From assembly GCA_045124955.1 (NCBI GenBank), contig JBGVMU010000003.1, forward strand, positions 85,247 to 149,246: a stretch of DNA of 64,000 nucleotides, written 5' to 3'. Position 1 is the stretch's first letter. The number at the start of each line of letters is the position of its first letter. Position numbers and translations under genes: made by a program. This document shows positions 4,831-16,006 of the stretch, piece by piece. The notes beneath the pieces were generated by a model that saw only the letters and a list, made by a program, of their open reading frames with translations, made no database searches and was not told where the DNA came from. The stretch is from Alistipes sp. Its GTDB lineage: Bacteria > Bacteroidota > Bacteroidia > Bacteroidales > Rikenellaceae.

Positions 4831-7800
4831 TTAGTAACGAATTTGAACACTGAATATGATGGTGCGAGCCTTCGGATAAGCACCATTATCCATACGACGA
4901 ATGGTCGAGCCGCTGGAATTTGTCGATACATCAGGGTCGTAGCCGTTGTAGTTCTTCCACAAGAAGAGGTTCTCGCCACTTGCGCTGACGGTGATGTCAC
5001 GCAGGTGCTTGGTCTTCTTGCGAAGGTCGAAGGTGTAACCCAAGGAGATGTTCTTCAAACGGATGTACGAAGCATCGTAGACCATACTCGAACTTGGCAA
5101 TTCGTCACTGCGATATGCGCCAGGGATGTTCGACTCAGGATTTCGTACCGGATGCCAAGCATCGAGCATATAGCGATATTGGTTGGTGTAGGAGCTACCC
5201 TTCATCCACAACTCCGAGAGATTGTAGATCTTACCTCCGAGCGAGTAGTTGAAATAGACGCTCAAACGGAACTTTCCGATGTGGAAGGTGTTCTGCAAAC
5301 CTCCGTAGAGGATAGGGTCTGCCGAACCGAGATATACGAGGTCATCCTCGTTGAGTGCTCCGTCGTGGTTGGTATCCACATAGTAGGCATAACCAGGCTT
5401 GTAGCGGCTCGAACTACTCGATACGTAGGCCTTTGTCTCGGTGTTGCGGTTAATCTGATCCTGAGTGTGCCATACGCCAGCCTGCTGGAAGCCCCACAAT
5501 GCATTGAGTGGATAGCCATTGACATATCCGTACATCATATAGGAGTTGTTTGTAGGCGAAGAGTAGGCTGCGATATAGTCGCTCGAACCTGTGTCGAGTA
5601 CCAATTGCGAGTTGTGCGCAATGGTGAAGGTTGTATCCCAACTAAACTTCTTGCGTGTGATGTTGTGCGAGGTGATGCTGAACTCTACACCCTTATTCTC
5701 GGTTGCACCAATATTGGTGTAGCGAGAGTCGAAACCGGTGCTTGTAGGGAGCTTCACCGAGAGCAACAAGTCGGTAGTGAGGGAGTAGTAAGCCTCCAAC
5801 GAGAACTCCAATCGCTTATCCAATACCGAGAAGTCGATACCTGCGTTATACATAGTGGTCTTCTCCCAAGTCAAATCCTTGCTCTCCAAGCGAGAAGGAT
5901 AGACCGCCAACGGCTGGTTATAGCCGAAGAGGTAACCACTTGTGCTGCTCGACAACGCCTCCATCGAACGATAGTACGAGATAGCATCGTTACCCGAAAC
6001 ACCCGCACTGAGTCGCAACGAGAGGTCGTCTAACCAATTCACCTGCTTCATAAACGGCTCCTTCGAAATCATCCACTTGAATGCTCCCGACGGGAAGAAG
6101 GCGTATTTGTTGTTGGCGGCAAAGTTCGACGAGCCATCGACACGAGCCGTAAAGGTGAAGTAGTAGCGCTTCTTGTAGTTGTAGTTGAAACGGCCAAGCA
6201 CCGAATTACGGGTACGCTCGTTGAACGAAGATGCCGGCGAGAGGTTATTCTTATCGGGAATAGCCTCCATATTGTTCCACTTGATATCGTCGCTCAAATA
6301 GCCCGTACCCTTCAACGAGAAGTTGTGCTGTTGGAACTTCTCCACGGTGAAGCCAACCATCAAATCCAAGTTGTGCAGACGGCGGATAGTGCGCTTATAG
6401 CTCAGCGTATTTTCGTTGGTGAGTCGATACTCGTCGGTCTCGGCACGATAGGCCACAGCACCCTGGTTGATAGCCTCGTAGGTCGGACGAGTCGATGGGT
6501 AGAACTCGTAGGTGTGACGCTGGAACACATAGTAGTTGAAACGAGAACGGAATGTCAAGCCCTTTGCCAAGTTGATAGTGATATTTGGCGAGAGGGTAAA
6601 CATCTTTCGTGTAGTCTCGTTGGTAATGAGGTGTGCGTCCAAGTATGGCGAGTTGTATGGCTGACCACCATCGAAACCTGTACCCCAGAGGATATTCACG
6701 GTGTCGGTAGGCGACTGCATAGGGTTGAGGAAGATGGCTCCATTCCAATAGTTAACGCCACCCACAGCAACCTTGTTGTTGTCGTTCATACGGTACTCGT
6801 AGTTCATATTGATGCCCAAGCGCAACCACTTGAAGAGCTGATACTGCGCATTCAGACGACCTGTCAAACGCTCCATACCCGAGCAGATGATGATACCGTC
6901 ATTCTTGTGGTAGCCAAACGAGGTGAAGTAGTTGTACTTCTTCGATCCGCCCGAAACGCTCAAATTGTAGTTCTGGTACATACCCGTGCGAGTGATGACA
7001 TCCTGCCAATCGGTACCCTTGCCATAGGCATTAGGGTCGAGGTACTTGTAGTCACTCTCCGGCTTTGTGCCAGGGCCTCCCGAGTTGTTGAGGTGCACAT
7101 CGTTGCGGTATTGAGCAAACTCCGATGCGTTCATCACATCGAGCTTGCGAGGCAACTGCGAGAATCCGAGGTCGGTCTTGAAGGTGATACGAGGCTTCGA
7201 GCCCGAGTCGGAACCACCCTTTGTGGTCACGATGATTACACCATTAGCACCTCTTGCTCCGTAGATAGCGGTCGACGAGGCATCCTTCAATACCGAGATA
7301 GACTTGATATCCGAAGGGTTGAGGTCGCCCAAGTCCGATACACCGTCCATCACGCCATCCACCACGATGAGTGGCTCGTTCGAGGCGGTGATTGAGCGAG
7401 TACCACGAATACGAATTGAGGTCGAAGCGCCAGGCTCACCTGTTGTCGACATAATATCGGCACCTGCAACACGACCCTGCAACGCCTGGTCGATTGACGA
7501 AACGGGAGCGTCGGCAATCTCCGACATCTTAACCGTAGAAACCGAGCCTGTCAAGTCGCTCTTCGCCACCGAGCCATAACCGATAACCACAACCTCATCC
7601 ACCTTGACATTGTCCTGCGCAAGGGCGATGTTGATGGTGGTGCGAGAGTTGATTTTAACCTTTTGCGAAGTGTAACCGAGGTACTGCACCTCCAACACTC
7701 CGTTTGCAGGCACTTGGAGGGTATATTTACCCTGCAAGTCTGAGGATGTTCCGATGGTTGTTCCCTCAACCGATACGGCAGCACCTACGAGTGCCTGCTT

Positions 7801-9665: not shown

Positions 9666-12600
9666 CTATTTTTTGATACAACGAACTCCCATTGCAGTTA
9701 CTGGTGCCCAAGAACCCGTGTTAACAGTGCGTGCTCCAGCACCCTTACCCCAATAGATGAACAACTGCTTCGAATCGTTAGTTGTAGCTCCTGCAATATT
9801 GGCATTAGGGCTATTCACAGTTGTCCACAAACCATAGTATTGGCGCAAACCGCTTACGGCGTGCCACAAGAACTCGCCTTCACGCTCGATGTAGTAACCA
9901 CCCTTGCAGTTGCCCTCGGCAGCCAAGTGCGCTGTAGGAGGTGTTGCTGTATTCAACGCCTTGAGGTCTTCAACGATGGTTGCAGTCAGTGGCAACTCAT
10001 AGCCATAAGGGCACGGATCGTACTGCTTGTGCTTCTCGTCGGAGTAGTTCCACGAAGCCTTTTCGTGTGAAGGGTCCATACTCCAGATTTTATTCCAATG
10101 GCGCTGTGTAGTATTGTTTGTCTGACAACCGATAAAGAGCGGTGACTTTGTAGCCGAAGCGTTTGTCTCCCAGAATGCCTGGGTAATGCTGCTGGTAAAT
10201 CTCTTCATAACAGATACCGGTATTGCACCTCCTGCACCTCCTGCACCACCTACGGTGATGAGATCGGCCGATGGGTAGTAGTAGGTTGGAGTATTCTCGC
10301 CCGACTGACCCAAACGATTTGCCCACGCCTCAGCGGTGTAGTTTATTGCGTAAGGGAATGGCGATGGACGACCCCACTGATAGAGCATACCGCCCGAAGC
10401 GAGAAAGTCGGCATCGGTCATAGCCTCCATCTCGGCCTTCGAGGTTGGCACCTTCAATGCACCAAGGTTACGGTCGTAGTAGGTGTTTGCGCCCAAGACC
10501 ACATCCTTTGGCTGACCTGCGCCAGGGCACCACAAGTGCCAAGCCCAGAGCACCATACCATTCTCTATGGTGACAATCGAAGCGTTACCCTCCGAGCCGT
10601 CGTAGTAGAACGACACACTCTGGCTATTGTTGCAGGTGTGAACATTCGAAATCATACCTTTGTTCAACTCGAAGAGTGTTCCTGCGATAGCGTTTTTGCT
10701 GATTACGGCAGTGCCATCCTCGTCATTGTCGTAGCCACCCTTAATCTTGGCATCGAACATATACCAGCCCTTCTTGTTAGGCATAACGAAGCAGTTTGCA
10801 TACTTGCCACCCTCGGTGAGGTTGGTGCATTTGATTGTCGAAATGGCTGTCTCGCTGCACACAGCACGCTCTGTGGTGAGTGCTGCCACGCTCTTGATGG
10901 TAGCACCCAAAGTGCCATCCACTGCAATCGACAACTCCTCCGCATCGTAAGTTGCAGCAGGAATAGCCACATAGAACACCTGGTTTGCTCCGTTGCTGAT
11001 TGCCACAGGGCTCTCCATAACAAGGCGGATGTTGTTTTTAGCCGAAGTAAAGAGCACGGTCGGCTCCTCCTCGTAGCTCATATCCACATCGGCAACGCCC
11101 GCCAAAGGCTTGCTCTTGCTGGTGATGTCGATACCCCAAATTTGGCAGTCGTAGTTTGCCACCACCTCGATTGCGAGGATAGAGGTGAGGAGGTTGAGCT
11201 GTGCCACACCCTCCTTGCTACGACCAACATATATCTGCGACTCCTTCGCCACAGCCTCCTCGGTGTAGAGCTGACTCTCGGGGAAGGTTATTGTAGCCTT
11301 GGTGCCAAGCGACTTAACGGCCGATGCAGGATATGCCACATTGAACGGCTCGTTAGGTGTTCCTACGGCAACAACTCGGTTTCTCTTGCTGCCCGCAGCA
11401 CCGAGTATCGTCGATACGATGCCCTTGCCTCGTGCCTCGTTGTAGATCGAGAGCTGGTCACCCTCGCTCCACGCCACCTTTCCGTACTCAACATCTTCGA
11501 GTACGATGTCGATAGTCTGGTAGGTGATATCCTCGGCGATAGTCGCCAAGTTCATTCGCTTGATTATGACCTTCTCGGCAACCGTAGCCGTGAGTGTCTC
11601 GCCATTGTCGGCGGTCACGGTCACTGCCAAGTCGTCGTACTCGCCTGCCGGCAACGAGATGTAGAACATCTTCGGAGCATCGAGCGAAGCCTCCGGTAAC
11701 TCGGCACTTGCATCCAAGGTGATAATCTGCTTTGCACCCGACTCCGCCTCCGAGCAGAGGTAGTCGTTTGCTGTGTCGAATACGAGTCTGCCCGCCAAAG
11801 GCTTCGACGAGCTGACTTCGATATGTCTGATTTTGAGATTTGCCTTAACATTTACCGCCAACACACCCATAACATACTCGAACGAGAGCTTCTCGCCTGT
11901 GGCAGCCTTTGCTACCATAAGTGGCGTATTCTCAATGAATTGTGAGAGCAACGATGGGTTGTAGGTCTGCTTGCTGTCGGTCGATATGGTGAGCTTACCC
12001 TCCGAAAGCGATGTTTGTGCATTGTATGGATAGTATGCCACGATGTCGCCGCTGGCTGTTGCGCCCACGAACTGCGCCTCGGCTTTGCCCACCGATGACG
12101 ACTCGATGGTGTAGAGGGTATTCTTCGAATCCTCGCTGAATACGCCTATTGTCGCATCCTTTGCCCAGGTGCGAGGGGTAGCCTCTACCAACTCGCCAAG
12201 CGTGAGCGACTCGAAGTCGGCAACGATAGTGCCACTCGACATCGCCTCGCCACACTGCAACGAGGTCACTCGCTTCACGGTGTATGCGCCATTGAGTTTT
12301 TTGGATATCTCGCCTTTGTCTGTCTTGACCGTGATTGCAAGGTCGGTGTAGGTTGCCGATGGAAGGAGTGCGTGGATGAGCGCAGGAGCCTCATCGGTTG
12401 CTACAACGCCCTCGCCACAATCTACGGTGAGCGAGTAGAGCGAACGAGCCACTGCCGAAGCCTCCATATCGTTCTCGAAGTCGAATGCTATGCGTCCTGC
12501 CAATGGTTGGCTACTGCTCGAAAGGGTTATGGAGCGAACAGTGAAGTTGCCCTTGACCTGAATGGCCAAAGAGCCGTAGAGATAGCCGAAATCGACAACG

Positions 12601-13052
12601 CCGTCGGTGGATTTTGCCACATAGAGGTTGTTGTGCTGCTCGAATTGAGCAACGAGGTCGGCATTGTAGTTTTGGGTATCGGGCAAGGTGAGCGAGATCT
12701 TCGAACCTTCGGCCGTAACATCCTTATCGTAAGGGTAGTAGGCGTAGATGTCGCCCTTGACCTCTGCTCCGTAGAAGAGTCCTTCGGCAGCTCCGTCGTA
12801 GGAGTTGAAGAGCGAATATTTGGCATTCTCGCCACCCTCTTTGCCGAATACTCCGATGTGGGTTAATGTGTTCCAGGTGTGGGATGTTTCGCTCTCCAAC
12901 AGAGCCTCCGCAGTCGTGATTTTCAGCTGCGAGGTTGTGGCTGTGAGCGTTGTACGACCATTGGTTGGCACTTCGTCCACACCATTGTCGGGTGTGACAC
13001 ACCCCGAAAGAGATAGAACCACACAAAGTATCGTGAAGTAAAATCTTTTCAT
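9666..13052 (-). CDS. Fimbrillin/type V pilin-like lipoprotein with three tandem pilin modules and a FISUMP/C-type-lectin-like head (1128 aa)
   Basis: Lipobox LSGC; three repeats of W...IGVF/WSEGDQLSIY, LAGR/LAGV and LP-A--Y-D motifs; head motifs ANCF, WAWHLW, YDRNLGA, YQWGRPSPF, DPCPYGY, GVRCIKK. Confidence 0.8.
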   Translation of the reverse strand: MKRFYFTILCVVLSLSGCVTPDNGVDEVPTNGRTTLTATTSQLKITTAEALLESETSHTWNTLTHIGVFGKEGGENAKYSLFNSYDGAAEGLFYGAEVKGDIYAYYPYDKDVTAEGSKISLTLPDTQNYNADLVAQFEQHNNLYVAKSTDGVVDFGYLYGSLAIQVKGNFTVRSITLSSSSQPLAGRIAFDFENDMEASAVARSLYSLTVDCGEGVVATDEAPALIHALLPSATYTDLAITVKTDKGEISKKLNGAYTVKRVTSLQCGEAMSSGTIVADFESLTLGELVEATPRTWAKDATIGVFSEDSKNTLYTIESSSVGKAEAQFVGATASGDIVAYYPYNAQTSLSEGKLTISTDSKQTYNPSLLSQFIENTPLMVAKAATGEKLSFEYVMGVLAVNVKANLKIRHIEVSSSKPLAGRLVFDTANDYLCSEAESGAKQIITLDASAELPEASLDAPKMFYISLPAGEYDDLAVTVTADNGETLTATVAEKVIIKRMNLATIAEDITYQTIDIVLEDVEYGKVAWSEGDQLSIYNEARGKGIVSTILGAAGSKRNRVVAVGTPNEPFNVAYPASAVKSLGTKATITFPESQLYTEEAVAKESQIYVGRSKEGVAQLNLLTSILAIEVVANYDCQIWGIDITSKSKPLAGVADVDMSYEEEPTVLFTSAKNNIRLVMESPVAISNGANQVFYVAIPAATYDAEELSIAVDGTLGATIKSVAALTTERAVCSETAISTIKCTNLTEGGKYANCFVMPNKKGWYMFDAKIKGGYDNDEDGTAVISKNAIAGTLFELNKGMISNVHTCNNSQSVSFYYDGSEGNASIVTIENGMVLWAWHLWCPGAGQPKDVVLGANTYYDRNLGALKVPTSKAEMEAMTDADFLASGGMLYQWGRPSPFPYAINYTAEAWANRLGQSGENTPTYYYPSADLITVGGAGGAGGAIPVSVMKRFTSSITQAFWETNASATKSPLFIGCQTNNTTQRHWNKIWSMDPSHEKASWNYSDEKHKQYDPCPYGYELPLTATIVEDLKALNTATPPTAHLAAEGNCKGGYYIEREGEFLWHAVSGLRQYYGLWTTVNSPNANIAGATTNDSKQLFIYWGKGAGARTVNTGSWAPVTAMGVRCIKK

Positions 13053-13175
13053 ACGAGTTAGTCTTTACTATATATATAATATAGGTATGGTTGGTTTTGT
13101 AGGTTGCTCTTGTTGGGTGCAGAGCCTTTGGGGCGGAGCACCTCGTCGAGCTTGCGACATAGTCGCAATGGGTAT

Positions 13176-13208
13176 AAAGACGGGGCGGGCGATCCTACGC
13201 CCCGTCTT
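13176..13208 (-). terminator. Stem-loop between the two fimbrillin-like genes (probable terminator/attenuator)
   Basis: AAGACGGG(GCGG)GCG...CGCCCGTCTT hairpin 15 nt after the stop at 13224; only a short T tail on the minus strand. A second perfect hairpin TTGCGAC-ATA-GTCGCAA lies at 13152-13168. Confidence 0.55.
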
Positions 13209-13223
13209 GAAAATCGTAGTATA

Positions 13224-15458
13224 TTAGAACTTACCTCTACGGCAACGAACATTGTAACCCTGAGCGTTTACAGTCTTACTTGCGTTTGGGTTGAGAAGAC
13301 CTGGTGCAGTATAGTTACTACCAACCTCACCGAATGCCATTGCACCACCATTACCAATGGTATAAGTCTTACCGCCATTTGCAACGGTGTAAGTATTGGT
13401 ATTGTTGGTGTTTACAACATAGATGTAACCGCAGTTAGAATACTGACCCGCAACACCTGTAATACCTGATGTTCTGTTACCTGCGCAAGGCCAATACATA
13501 GGAACAGCGTTATCATCCTTATCCTTGCAGCCATTGTAATACATACCATAGAACTTGTAGCCCGACTTGTAGGTAGCATCATCCTCGGCAGCACGAGCAT
13601 AGCCAAACTTAGCCTTCACGGCATCGCTTGTGGTAGCATACCAATAGAGGATAGAGTAGTTCTCCATAATATATCCCGGAGGGCACGGATCGTGAGCAGT
13701 CTTGTACTTCATCATCTCATCGTGGTTGTTATCGTTGATACTATTCCAAAGACGATAATTACCCTCTGAAACAACCACACTTATTGGTGAAGTTTTGCCT
13801 TGCTGGTTAATAATGTTTGACAAGTTCCAAGTATCCTTATTACCCTCATATGCTCGGTACTCGTAGTTTGGCAAGGTGATACCATTGTGAACATAGAGTG
13901 TCTGACCCTCCTCGGTAAATGTAGACTCGAAGATATTTGCCGCGCTTTGCGATGTTGCCCAATACTGGCTATACTGCGAGAAACCATACGCTACATCGCA
14001 ACGAGTGTTGTGGAGAGTTTCAATCTTCTCCTTAGTCTTGTCGCCCAAGCTCTTAATACGAGGGAGTGGATTGCAACTCTGATACTGGAAATAGACACCA
14101 CAAGCGTCGTTTGCGTTCTCCAAGGCAATTGTGTTGTTGAATGCCACATTCTGACTTGAAAGAGTCAAGGTAGAGGTTGTCTGGATATCAGAAGTAGGAG
14201 TCCAAGTAGCACCTATAACACGGTCCATCATGTAGTAAGCAACGTTCGCATTCTTACCCGAACCCATAATCTTCAAGGTCTTAGGTGCATCGGTAATCCA
14301 AATGTGCCAGTGCCAAATAATAGCATTATTAGCCTGACCACCATTGGTGAGTACAACCAAAGCATTACCCTTCTTACCGTTGGTCTTGAACGAAATCTTG
14401 TTGGTTGCTGGGTCGTAGTGCAAGTCGTAAACCATACCAGCCTCCTCAGCCCACTTAATCTCGGCAGTAACACCGCCCTTGAGAACAGCGCCGTCAGCCA
14501 AGATACAAGGGAACTCATACGAACCTGCTGTTGGAGGAACCATATAGCAACGAGCGTAGTCCTCGTATGCCTTGCCTGTTGTACCTGCCAACGAAACAGG
14601 GTTTGCAGGAGTATGAGCAGCCAAATTGATGTGAGATGCGCTAATAGGCTTGATAGCCGAACGAGTTACGGTGTGAGGCTTGGTTGCATAAACTGCTTGC
14701 GAGCCCTTGTCGGTGATGAATACAAGACCCATATTCTCGTACTCGCCCTCAGGCAATGCGATATAGAGCTCCTCGCCATTTGTGATATCCAATCCCTCCT
14801 TGTAGGTATACTTCAAGTAAGAGAAAGCAGCATTGTTGGTAGCCATTGCTACATTGCCATCCTTGCCAACCTCCTTCGAGAGGTTGAGAGTCGCCAACTG
14901 TGCGATTGGGTGGAACTCCGATGATGTACGGCAGGTTGAACGAACGATAACGCTCTGCAACTTACCCTCTCCCTTTACAGGAACCTTGATGTAGCCGAGC
15001 AAGTTCTTGAATGTGATGTACTCACCCTCAACAACGCCCTTCATAGGGTTCTGGTCGAAGATTGCCTCAGCGCTTGCAAGGTTTGTTACATTGTAAGGCA
15101 AGTTGAACTTTGCTGTTGTGCCGTCGAGAGTTGGCCTGTTCGACATATAGATGATATATGCAGTGTTCGACGGAATAGCTATGGTGCTATTGGTGTGATC
15201 TACGGTGTAGGTGTTTGCGTCGAGCGCAAGTGCGCCACCCTCGCCTTGGAGAACAGCATAAACCTTGTCGCCCTCGCTCCAAGCGAGCTTTCCGCTAACA
15301 TCGTCACGGTCGAGACGGGTATCCTCGAAGACGAGGTTCTTAACTACGAGCTCTCCTGCCTCGATACCGCCATTGTTTACTACATCATTTGTAAAATCTT
15401 TGGTACAGCCTGCAAACATTAGTGCCACGGCTGAAATTGCTAATAAAATCTTTTTCAT
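13224..15458 (-). CDS. Fimbrillin/type V pilin-like lipoprotein with FISUMP-like head (744 aa)
   Basis: Lipobox FAGC, EDTR|L propeptide-like site, WSEGDKVY motif; head motifs ARCYMV, WHWHIW, MDRVIGA, HDPCPPGY, WPCAGNR, YNVRCRR. Confidence 0.82.
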   Translation of the reverse strand: MKKILLAISAVALMFAGCTKDFTNDVVNNGGIEAGELVVKNLVFEDTRLDRDDVSGKLAWSEGDKVYAVLQGEGGALALDANTYTVDHTNSTIAIPSNTAYIIYMSNRPTLDGTTAKFNLPYNVTNLASAEAIFDQNPMKGVVEGEYITFKNLLGYIKVPVKGEGKLQSVIVRSTCRTSSEFHPIAQLATLNLSKEVGKDGNVAMATNNAAFSYLKYTYKEGLDITNGEELYIALPEGEYENMGLVFITDKGSQAVYATKPHTVTRSAIKPISASHINLAAHTPANPVSLAGTTGKAYEDYARCYMVPPTAGSYEFPCILADGAVLKGGVTAEIKWAEEAGMVYDLHYDPATNKISFKTNGKKGNALVVLTNGGQANNAIIWHWHIWITDAPKTLKIMGSGKNANVAYYMMDRVIGATWTPTSDIQTTSTLTLSSQNVAFNNTIALENANDACGVYFQYQSCNPLPRIKSLGDKTKEKIETLHNTRCDVAYGFSQYSQYWATSQSAANIFESTFTEEGQTLYVHNGITLPNYEYRAYEGNKDTWNLSNIINQQGKTSPISVVVSEGNYRLWNSINDNNHDEMMKYKTAHDPCPPGYIMENYSILYWYATTSDAVKAKFGYARAAEDDATYKSGYKFYGMYYNGCKDKDDNAVPMYWPCAGNRTSGITGVAGQYSNCGYIYVVNTNNTNTYTVANGGKTYTIGNGGAMAFGEVGSNYTAPGLLNPNASKTVNAQGYNVRCRRGKF

Positions 15459-15479
15459 AGTCTTAATGTTTTTAGGTTG

Positions 15480-15626
15480 TTAGAATTCGTTGTCGGCATC
15501 TTTCTCCGGAATATCTTCGAATGAAGAGGAAGAGGAGAGGGCAAAACCCGACTCTACTTTGACGGTTAATGCGTCCAATGCGGGGGCATCGTAGCAACCA
15601 TCCGATAGTAAATGCTTTTTGTTCAT
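15480..15626 (-). CDS. 48-aa small acidic peptide at the head of the operon (below the ORF-track cutoff)
   Basis: MNKKHLLSDGCYDAPALDALTVKVESGFALSSSSSFEDIPEKDADNEF*. Its leader AACCTAAAACATT-ATG matches the AACCTAAAAACATT upstream of the next gene. Confidence 0.75.
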   Translation of the reverse strand: MNKKHLLSDGCYDAPALDALTVKVESGFALSSSSSFEDIPEKDADNEF

Positions 15627-15723
15627 AATGTTTTAGGTTTAATAAGTTAAAATTTGATATTTTGTTGTATTTAATTTCTTGTCCTTGTAATTGATTGATA
15701 GTCAAGTTATTAAAGCCGAAATA

Positions 15724-15842
15724 CCCCCCCCCCCGAAAAATTTTCGGGGAGGGCATTTCTCCTATTGTGTTATTTTCTAATTCAAAGTAAACGATTTTTT
15801 GCGAGATTTCCAAATTTTTTTTTGTTTTTTTTCGGGGGGGGG
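15724..15842. repeat. Inverted homopolymer repeats C11-GAAAAA ... TTTTTC-G9 flanking the promoter
   Basis: 15726-15740 CCCCCCCCCGAAAAA is the exact reverse complement of 15828-15842 TTTTTCGGGGGGGGG; 87 bp lie between them. Confidence 0.85.
15783..15814 (-). promoter_or_regulatory. Candidate housekeeping-type promoter for the 15.6-kb surface-protein operon
   Basis: On the minus strand TTTG-N20-TTACTTTG, one mismatch from the Bacteroidota -33 TTTG / -7 TAnnTTTG consensus. Confidence 0.5.
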
Positions 15843-15954
15843 ATTATTGGGGGTTACTGGGGTTACTGGGGGCGCTCACTCTGTTCGCTTGTCGGGGTGC
15901 GCTGAAAGTTTCTCCCATTAGTCCCATTGGTCTTATTAGTCCCATTGGTCCCAT
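15843..15954 (-). repeat. Scaffold repeat copy (AAACTTTCAGCGC anchor + cargo) followed by a 9-mer CCCATTRGT array
   Basis: The reverse complement of 15843-15911 starts AAACTTTCAGCGCACCCC, like 55226 and 63711; 9-mer array at 15914-15954. Confidence 0.7.
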
Positions 15955-16006
15955 CCAGCTCTCAACTTTTTCCCTCCGCAAAATGCAGATAATCCCAAAA
16001 AATTCG

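Follow-up and report, generated by a model that had tools for sequence, protein, structure and literature searches.

Type V pilins (the FimA/Mfa proteins) carry an N-terminal strand and an Arg loop, the arrangement that they use for proteolytic activation and strand exchange. Small peptides encoded ahead of the gene they serve are known from other settings, among them the acidic, Pro-rich leader peptide MgtL with its condition-dependent ribosome destabilisation. A full-text literature search found no type V pilus locus with a conserved small cytoplasmic peptide gene, and nothing describing the peptide family reported here. The gene in question lies at positions 15480 to 15626, minus strand, of a 64,000-nucleotide (nt) stretch of Alistipes sp. 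DNA (assembly GCA_045124955.1, contig JBGVMU010000003.1, positions 85,247 to 149,246; the whole stretch is called “the window” below). It almost certainly encodes a small acidic protein (~45 amino acids, aa), predicted to be translated, that belongs to a large undescribed Bacteroidales family and is the first cistron of a two-gene, one-mRNA module; the second cistron, as part of the same near-certain prediction, is a pilin-like lipoprotein whose N-terminal domain resembles type V pilins and whose C-terminal adhesin-type domain is exchangeable. Judging from the loci compared, genes for these peptides almost always directly precede a pilin-like surface lipoprotein gene in gut Bacteroidales. The features of the module in the window are:

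15783..15814, minus strand: putative Bacteroidetes-type promoter, TTTG at 15814-15811, 21 nt, TACTTTG at 15789-15783, inferred from sequence
15723..15752, minus strand: GC hairpin in the 5' leader, CCCTCCCCGAAAA/TTTTTCGGGGGGGGGGG, then UAUUU (z = -2.9)
15627..15639, minus strand: A-rich leader AACCTAAAACATT, without a Shine-Dalgarno sequence, abutting the peptide ATG
15480..15626, minus strand: small-protein gene, ATG at 15626 and stop codon TAA at 15482-15480, 48 aa including M1, encoding MNKKHLLSDGCYDAPALDALTVKVESGFALSSSSSFEDIPEKDADNEF
15459..15479, minus strand: A-rich 21-nt spacer from peptide stop to lipoprotein start, containing AACCTAAAAACATT (15478-15465)
13224..15458, minus strand: partner gene, a 744-aa lipoprotein with lipobox MKKILLAISAVALMFAGC and a C-terminal beta-rich domain ending ...YNVRCRRGKF

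The initial annotation had picked out this short open reading frame (ORF) for its YDAPAL and VESGFALS motifs, Ser run, acidic tail and lack of a signal peptide, and all of these are present exactly as listed. The conserved block Y12-x2-P15-x9-E25-x-G27-F-A-L-S is followed by a run of five Ser residues (S5) and by an acidic tail with an EF end; net charge is -6, the isoelectric point (pI) is 4.2, and there is no hydrophobic signal or transmembrane segment (maximum 15-residue Kyte-Doolittle mean 1.01). Cys11 lies within LLSDGC, which lacks a hydrophobic core and thus does not make a lipobox or signal peptide. No double-glycine (GG/GA/GS) cleavage motif is found across the family, in which F, M, V or S comes after the invariant G27, and no C39-ABC transporter gene is found near the peptide genes in the related annotated loci. 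The Ser run itself varies, a 6-nt in-frame indel (TCCTCT at 15523-15528) giving S5 or S3 peptides among strains and RNA contigs.

An ORF of 48 codons is not by its length above chance, as the window contains dozens of spurious ORFs of 30-100 aa; the case for a gene therefore rests on comparison across sequences. Its description as “unannotated” was partly right: public metagenome-assembled genome (MAG) records do carry it, labelled “hypothetical protein” (IKB90_06295, Alistipes sp.). A four-sequence profile scored against 1.84 billion representative proteins gave 17 matches at E<=1e-3, fifteen of them peptides of 42-55 aa, and a 20-sequence profile gave 424 related proteins at E<=1 (counted as 90%-identity clusters); in the whole 64-kb window the family profile matches exactly one ORF. 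First-profile matches to proteins of 1847 aa and 5430 aa are unrelated, being cadherin-like repeats that contain ITVQVESGSALD, and a 671-aa carboxylase appears as a “cluster member” only through an artefact of clustering. The 120 members listed of the 424 are 34-66 aa long, and those named at all are called “hypothetical protein”; the family comes from Alistipes, Bacteroides and unassigned gut bacteria. In a large subgroup (YEAPQVEVIEVEVEQGFAVS...), the flanking proteins cluster with proteins of Bacteroides intestinalis and Bacteroides sp., so that the family spans at least Rikenellaceae and Bacteroidaceae.

Only M1, Y12, P15, E25 and G27 (M, Y-x2-P-x9-E-x-G) are invariant in the alignment of 120 sequences, whose consensus reads M-K-x-K-x(6)-Y-E-A-P-x-V-E-V-I-E-V-E-V-E-Q-G-F-A-x-S. 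The architecture is a variable N-terminus of 6-12 aa, then a fixed-spacing block Y-x-x-P-x-h-x-h-h-x-h-x-h-E-x-G-F-A-x-S (h, hydrophobic), whose alternation of hydrophobic with acidic residues resembles that of an amphipathic beta-strand, and finally a variable tail in which D, S, G, E and P abound. In 95 of the 120 members at least one of the last four residues is aromatic. The tails group with the clades of the partner lipoproteins. Median values are 44.5 aa for length, -7 for net charge, 4.06 for pI and 0.76 for maximum 15-residue hydropathy. The family has no significant model match in Pfam, NCBIfam, PDB sequences, PHROGs, PADLOC or Rfam, the Rfam results being sub-threshold noise only (BTnc231, on the opposite strand, with 21 bits where the cut-off is 80 bits). 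A match to phrog_1782, a recombination directionality factor, scored 12-15 bits and was confined to the low-complexity VEVIEVEVE block; we judged it to be compositional or due to chance.

The conserved N-terminal region followed by a hypervariable C-terminal region, together with the YxxPxL-like motif (Y12-x-x-P15-x-L17 here, YxxPx(L/V/I/M/F) across the family), brings to mind the precursor of a ribosomally synthesised and post-translationally modified peptide (RiPP), whose YxxPx(L/V/I) leader would be bound by an enzyme of the RiPP recognition element (RRE) type with its gene at some other genomic site, and whose core would be the variable tail; one family member in 32 even has a sub-threshold match to the paeninodin lasso family (NF033524, E 0.15), and the window peptide has none. 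The initial annotation had already remarked on the absence of RiPP enzymes, and this observation extends to the family: neither the window flanks nor more than 15 related annotated loci contain radical-SAM, RRE/PqqD, lasso cyclase or protease, or C39-ABC genes, and the only constant neighbour is the lipoprotein. Further, no NCBIfam or Pfam RiPP model is matched significantly, the tail changes length by in-frame Ser-codon indels within one species, and the Y-to-G spacing of lasso leaders differs from the 15 residues of this peptide. We consider a RiPP precursor distinctly improbable, because no maturation enzymes are nearby.

Comparison of loci argues strongly for a genuine gene. A direct protein search returned only three close relatives (labelled Alistipes or unlabelled gut metagenome), all three directly upstream of an orthologue of the 744-aa gene, and a genome scan found a 45-aa version, MVKKQLFSSDYAQPAIVEIAVRVEAGFAVSDQFENIEEKEADTEF, with 50% identity, preceding the orthologous lipoprotein in another Alistipes MAG; peptide identity among the syntenic Alistipes relatives is 50-98%. 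When loci were fetched by their lipoproteins, at 71, 64, 57 and 47% lipoprotein identity, each had an ORF of 48-49 aa of the same family in the same position, and one locus (L013) with two tandem paralogous lipoprotein genes has one copy of the peptide gene for each. Thus a syntenic ORF is present at the equivalent position in every related locus examined, an outcome contrary to one half of the refuting condition named in the initial annotation. The ratio of nonsynonymous to synonymous change (pN/pS), a check of the dN/dS type that had also been called for, is ~0.3-0.5 for moderately diverged pairs. Pairwise codon comparison shows an excess of third-position changes (11, 13 and 29 differences at positions 1, 2 and 3 between the window and locus L014), and across all loci the conserved 19-codon block, in 26 distinct nucleotide versions, has a mean column entropy of 0.72, 0.53 and 1.44 bits at codon positions 1, 2 and 3, a signature of selection on the amino-acid sequence.

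The same comparison bears on the idea that the conserved element is RNA or DNA, either a structured 5' region or a recombination handle, with an incidental ORF. In its favour, the 3' half of the ORF is ~96% nucleotide-identical between the window and locus L009, while the flanks are 55-80% identical. Against this, each of the three differences there falls on a third position and is synonymous, variation across the family is likewise centred on third positions, the ORF is retained in length and in frame at 50% amino-acid divergence, and neither a covarying structure nor an Rfam match above threshold was found. An RNA or DNA element with an incidental ORF is disfavoured by these alignments to the point of being barely credible.

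The sequence is present in public gut metatranscriptomes, where single RNA contigs span 15261-15732, 15261-15714, 14730-15585 and 14662-15490, so that one RNA carries the peptide ORF together with the beginning of the lipoprotein gene. The RNA contigs stop at 15680-15732 and RNA depth is ~0 from 15755 to 15865, whereas metagenome DNA contigs run through. The contig ends coincide with the hairpin at 15752-15723, in which the homopolymer length varies between assemblies; the assembled contigs fit a transcript 5' end either at the promoter or at the hairpin. The promoter block TCTCGCAAAAAATnGnTTACTTTGA is kept in loci L012 and L013 and in similar form in L014. As for the AACCTAAAA(A)CATT leader said to be shared by the two genes, it does occur twice (AACCTAAAACATT at 15639-15627 before the peptide ATG, and AACCTAAAAACATT at 15478-15465, 6 nt before the lipoprotein ATG at 15458), but it is specific to the Alistipes clade: the motif is merely an A-rich start region, and no spacer or leader motif is conserved across the family.

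Several repeats surround the promoter. Poly-C/poly-G inverted repeats (C11GA5 / T8CG9) at 15713-15740 and 15828-15855 flank it, with 87 nt between the arms, and the first arm also pairs with 15741-15753 in the 5'-leader hairpin; the length of the C/G runs differs by 1-3 nt between assemblies. The hairpin core has 3-4 times the local metagenome depth and is therefore repeated at other loci. We rejected an invertible promoter acting through these repeats, as contigs from six DNA runs contained no strand-switch joints. Between the module promoter and the divergent PHP gene, positions 15850-15967 hold tandem 9-nt repeats, first GGGGTTACT-type units and then four CCCATTAGT/CCCATTGGT copies; metagenome depth here is 200-1000 as against 25-65 in the flanks, and the stretch thus belongs to a multi-copy repeat family. 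Upstream of the Bacteroides-type peptide genes there is a different repeat, an (AGCA)n tract of ~15-25 units (L018 ~2555-2620, L020 ~5780-5860, L040 ~45-140), which begins at the expected -7 box, right after a TTTGGAAATnTCGCAnAAAAT box common to the Alistipes promoter, and is followed by a terminator-like hairpin; it is a candidate slipped-strand phase-variation site for the adhesin modules.

The link between the peptide and the lipoprotein holds well beyond the window. From 44 loci we tabulated 34 distinct combinations of peptide and downstream gene, and a lipoprotein gene comes next after the peptide gene in 32 of the 34. In 29 of these combinations the downstream ORF starts 9-60 nt past the peptide stop, most often 21-22 nt (12/29), and all 29 downstream ORFs have a signal peptide with a lipobox Cys (two recognised by eye, having been missed by the regular expression). 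Three more loci have the lipoprotein gene as well, with a frame disruption or a ~190-nt palindromic insertion between; the peptide gene stands alone before a terminator-like hairpin in one locus (L032), and one further locus is unclear. The inserted element, ~170-190 nt, is palindromic and resembles a miniature inverted-repeat transposable element (GGGGTGTCAAAA...TTTTGACAC; L025 3685-3875, L033 127-330), and the peptide ORF beside it is intact. A fusion of peptide and lipoprotein by read-through or bypass was considered, as the two ORFs are in frame in the window, and was rejected because the relatives' spacers (21, 22, 28, 43 and 50 nt) vary in length and the frame is thus not conserved.

No other neighbour is conserved: PHP and Mla genes adjoin the module in Alistipes, and Tricorn protease/GH92, Fic/transposase/Abi or LepA/transglutaminase genes in the Bacteroides-type loci. 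Since all these neighbours vary by locus, the SusCD cluster is a feature of the lineage and not of the module. The initial annotation had the peptide lead a “pilin-like/SusCD operon”; the next gene does encode a pilin-like lipoprotein, but the SusCD link is lineage-specific, and Bacteroides-type modules stand alone among unrelated neighbours. Its statement that YxxP...ExGFxxS peptides precede fimbrillin genes in other Bacteroidales, on the other hand, is borne out by the profile search and the locus tables. Overall, its interpretation survives as to a genuine conserved gene, with the adjacent lipoprotein and not SusCD as the defining link.

The partner proteins are themselves very diverse. Their lengths cover 267-944 aa, and most cannot be aligned with each other; BLAST among them gives only weak similarity, confined to the first ~170-310 residues and including a W-S-x-G-D-type motif. 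The C-terminal parts differ as well, with Glug in L016, a BspA-type leucine-rich repeat (LRR)/DUF285 in L044 and none in L036, whose 267-aa partner is a plain Mfa_like_1 fimbrillin-like protein (E 2e-16). One partner cluster has more than 14,000 member sequences. The window's 744-aa partner has 89 homologues, down to 40% identity, and Pfam is silent for it. Its AlphaFold2 model has a mean predicted local distance difference test (pLDDT) of 86, with values above 90 over most of the body, and in a Foldseek search with this model the N-terminal ~300 aa have the two-domain beta-sandwich fold of type V pilins (FimA/Mfa): PG0181, BACOVA_04980, BF1858, Mfa4 and Mfa3 are matched at E 2e-6 to 5e-3, and 4rdb, 3ufi, 3t2l, 5dhm (Mfa4) and 5nf4 (Mfa3) with Foldseek probability 0.9-1.0 over ~300 columns. 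The earlier description of this protein as pilin-like is thus upheld at its N-terminus. In the model the first strand comprises residues 37-44 and is followed by a low-pLDDT loop with Arg48 and Arg51, which is consistent with, and not proof of, the strand removal and polymerisation of type V pilins.

Downstream of the partner gene the same strand continues with:

9666..13052, minus strand: second lipoprotein, 1128 aa, with an Mfa_like_1 domain and without a peptide gene of its own
then, same strand: 239-aa lipoprotein
then, same strand: endonuclease/exonuclease/phosphatase-like gene
then, same strand: SusC
then, same strand: SusD
then, same strand: 719-aa protein

The 239-aa lipoprotein has a faint precomputed BACON_2 match, found on its orthologue in related loci. 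The 744-aa and 1128-aa lipoproteins each end in a Trp/Tyr/Cys-rich beta domain of ~350 aa (HDPCPPGY, WPCAGNR, VRCRRGKF / VRCIKK), which may be an undescribed, divergent carbohydrate- or ligand-binding module. It resembles the FISUMP domain of Fibrobacter (TIGR02145), but NCBIfam and Pfam returned no match, and we did not assign it to that domain. RNA depth drops about tenfold after the 744-aa gene, at 13053-13223, and one metatranscriptome contig joins 13054 directly to 13224, omitting the 169-nt intergenic stretch; such a pattern suggests either that strains differ here or that a partial terminator separates the two pilin-like genes.

What, then, might the peptide do? Modelled from the 120 sequences with AlphaFold2, it is an extended, unfolded chain (mean pLDDT 69, with a peak of 81 over residues 11-20), as would be expected for a motif that folds only on binding. 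Tentatively, and with well under even confidence, we favour the reading that it is a cytoplasmic accessory or adaptor dedicated to its partner. Since it has no export signal, it would stay in the cytoplasm and serve the co-translated lipoprotein: the conserved amphipathic strand would bind a conserved target by beta-strand addition, this target being either a host component of export or biogenesis or the unfolded pilin-like N-domain, and specificity for the partner would come from the acidic tail, which is clade-specific. As the peptide would be made from the same mRNA as the partner and just ahead of it, both products would be sure to meet, and the large beta-rich prolipoprotein would be kept export-competent, or be routed, before Sec translocation. 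Sequence conservation, far stronger in the core of the peptide than among the partners, points to a third-party target that is itself conserved, and intact peptide genes that an insertion separates from the partner (L025-L027) or that stand alone (L032) fit a trans-acting product.

A number of points weigh against this accessory role. Translation, binding and location of the peptide are computational predictions, its binding target is hypothetical, and a disordered peptide of 45 aa is small for a holdase. The 1128-aa gene, and a third gene in L013 and L014, encode pilin-like lipoproteins without a peptide gene, and we know of no precedent for a dedicated pre-export factor for Sec lipoproteins. 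Further, co-folding with the 744-aa pilin, which the initial annotation had proposed, did not bear out an interaction: in an AlphaFold2 monomer model of the peptide joined through its natural spacer residues to the signal peptide and lipoprotein, the peptide was not docked onto the partner (pLDDT 24-28 over residues 1-80), a weak negative given the monomer model and the only three peptide sequences in the peptide block. At most, this would mildly disfavour binding of the peptide to a folded, self-capped partner.

The same model bears on an alternative in which the peptide is exported and its strand is inserted at the surface into the pilin-like groove, as a donor strand or cap, so as to control polymerisation or to stabilise a non-polymerising adhesin. 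Such a role would suit the beta-strand periodicity of the peptide core and a partner with a type V pilin fold, its strand 37-44 and its low-confidence Arg48/Arg51 loop. It agrees poorly with a peptide that has no signal peptide, lipobox, double-glycine leader or hydrophobic segment and no associated transporter gene in related loci; AlphaFold2 gave no placement on the folded partner, though the groove there already holds the partner's own N-terminal strand, and the family profile finds no similar strand or segment inside any partner protein. An exported pilus component therefore seems to us improbable.

A stronger competitor is a cis-acting regulatory leader peptide, an upstream ORF (uORF) whose translation would set how many ribosomes reach its stop and re-initiate ~21 nt downstream at the lipoprotein start. 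In variants of this idea, the conserved block would arrest or pause the ribosome from within the exit tunnel, or the D/E/P-rich tail would cause condition-dependent ribosome destabilisation. We regard the leader peptide as nearly as likely as the accessory role, while doubting either taken singly. The ORF lies upstream on the same mRNA, as RNA contigs span both ORFs; the spacer is short (21 nt here, most often 21-22 nt); the invariant residues and their fixed spacing, Y-2-P-9-E-1-G, are reminiscent of arrest motifs of the TnaC/SecM type; the tail is rich in D, E and P; and the stop codon is TAA in 19 of 20 loci examined. To our knowledge, Bacteroidales lack both SecB and Shine-Dalgarno-led initiation, and coupling of the two cistrons could matter since such initiation is missing in Bacteroidetes. 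Several observations pull the other way. No conserved RNA structure was found from the ORF to the downstream start: RNAalifold on seven Alistipes-clade loci gave a consensus of -2.5 kcal/mol with 7 weak pairs, and the single-sequence fold of ORF and spacer has z = -1.26, with the downstream start unpaired. The most conserved part of the peptide is the amphipathic beta-strand pattern and not the C-terminal end, which arrest-at-stop peptides keep. The spacing ranges over 9-60 nt and insertions of ~190 nt are tolerated with the ORF intact, and the solitary copy in L032 is followed by a terminator-like hairpin.

The accessory and leader readings meet in a broader proposal, namely that the type V pilin-like adhesins of gut Bacteroidales have, in the YxxP-ExGF peptides, a new component dedicated to their biogenesis or control, acting either by escort to export or by nascent-chain control of expression. 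As a whole this is possible, if conjectural; there is a fair chance that the family marks an unrecognised component of the biogenesis of such adhesins. If so, hundreds of adhesins in abundant species of the human and ruminant gut would share a common, manipulable genetic handle. Small proteins are under-annotated and few have a clear genomic partner, whereas the family here is large (424), occurs in human and ruminant gut, and is tied to a class of surface adhesins that shapes colonisation, aggregation and host interaction. Because the peptide core has changed far less than the fast-evolving adhesins, it marks their modules in genomes and probably contacts a conserved cellular machine; the family would justify a new family model for genome annotation, and its role, once worked out, could show by what means Bacteroidales produce or regulate their large surface lipoproteins.

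The peptide family appears undescribed in the full-text literature searched; in kind it is a small-protein or leader cistron coupled to the gene of a secreted protein, and it shares some traits with each of several known systems. Like the leaders of RiPPs that are recognised by an RRE (lasso YxxPxL, PqqA), these peptides are short, unstructured and acidic, with an aromatic-x-x-Pro-x-hydrophobic motif, a strand segment, and a conserved N-terminal and variable C-terminal part; they differ in their spacing, in matching no model, and in loci that have a pilin-like neighbour and no RRE, maturase, protease or exporter genes. With the arrest leaders (TnaC, SecM, MifM, MgtL) they have in common a small ORF that closely precedes the next gene on its mRNA, invariant residues at set distances and, as for MgtL, a tail with many acidic residues and Pro, but here there is no conserved RNA switch, the C-terminus is the least conserved part, and the ORF is kept when displaced by ~190 nt or alone. 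Class I type III secretion chaperones are likewise small acidic proteins encoded beside a single secreted client and presumed to act in the cytoplasm before export; they are folded dimers of ~130 aa with a dedicated machine, whereas the peptide is a disordered chain of 45 aa beside a Sec/lipoprotein substrate. As for the type V pilus proteins (FimA/Mfa; Mfa3, Mfa4, PG0181, BACOVA_04980), the likeness is that of the partner, which has their lipoprotein signal, two-domain fold, and strand with Arg loop.

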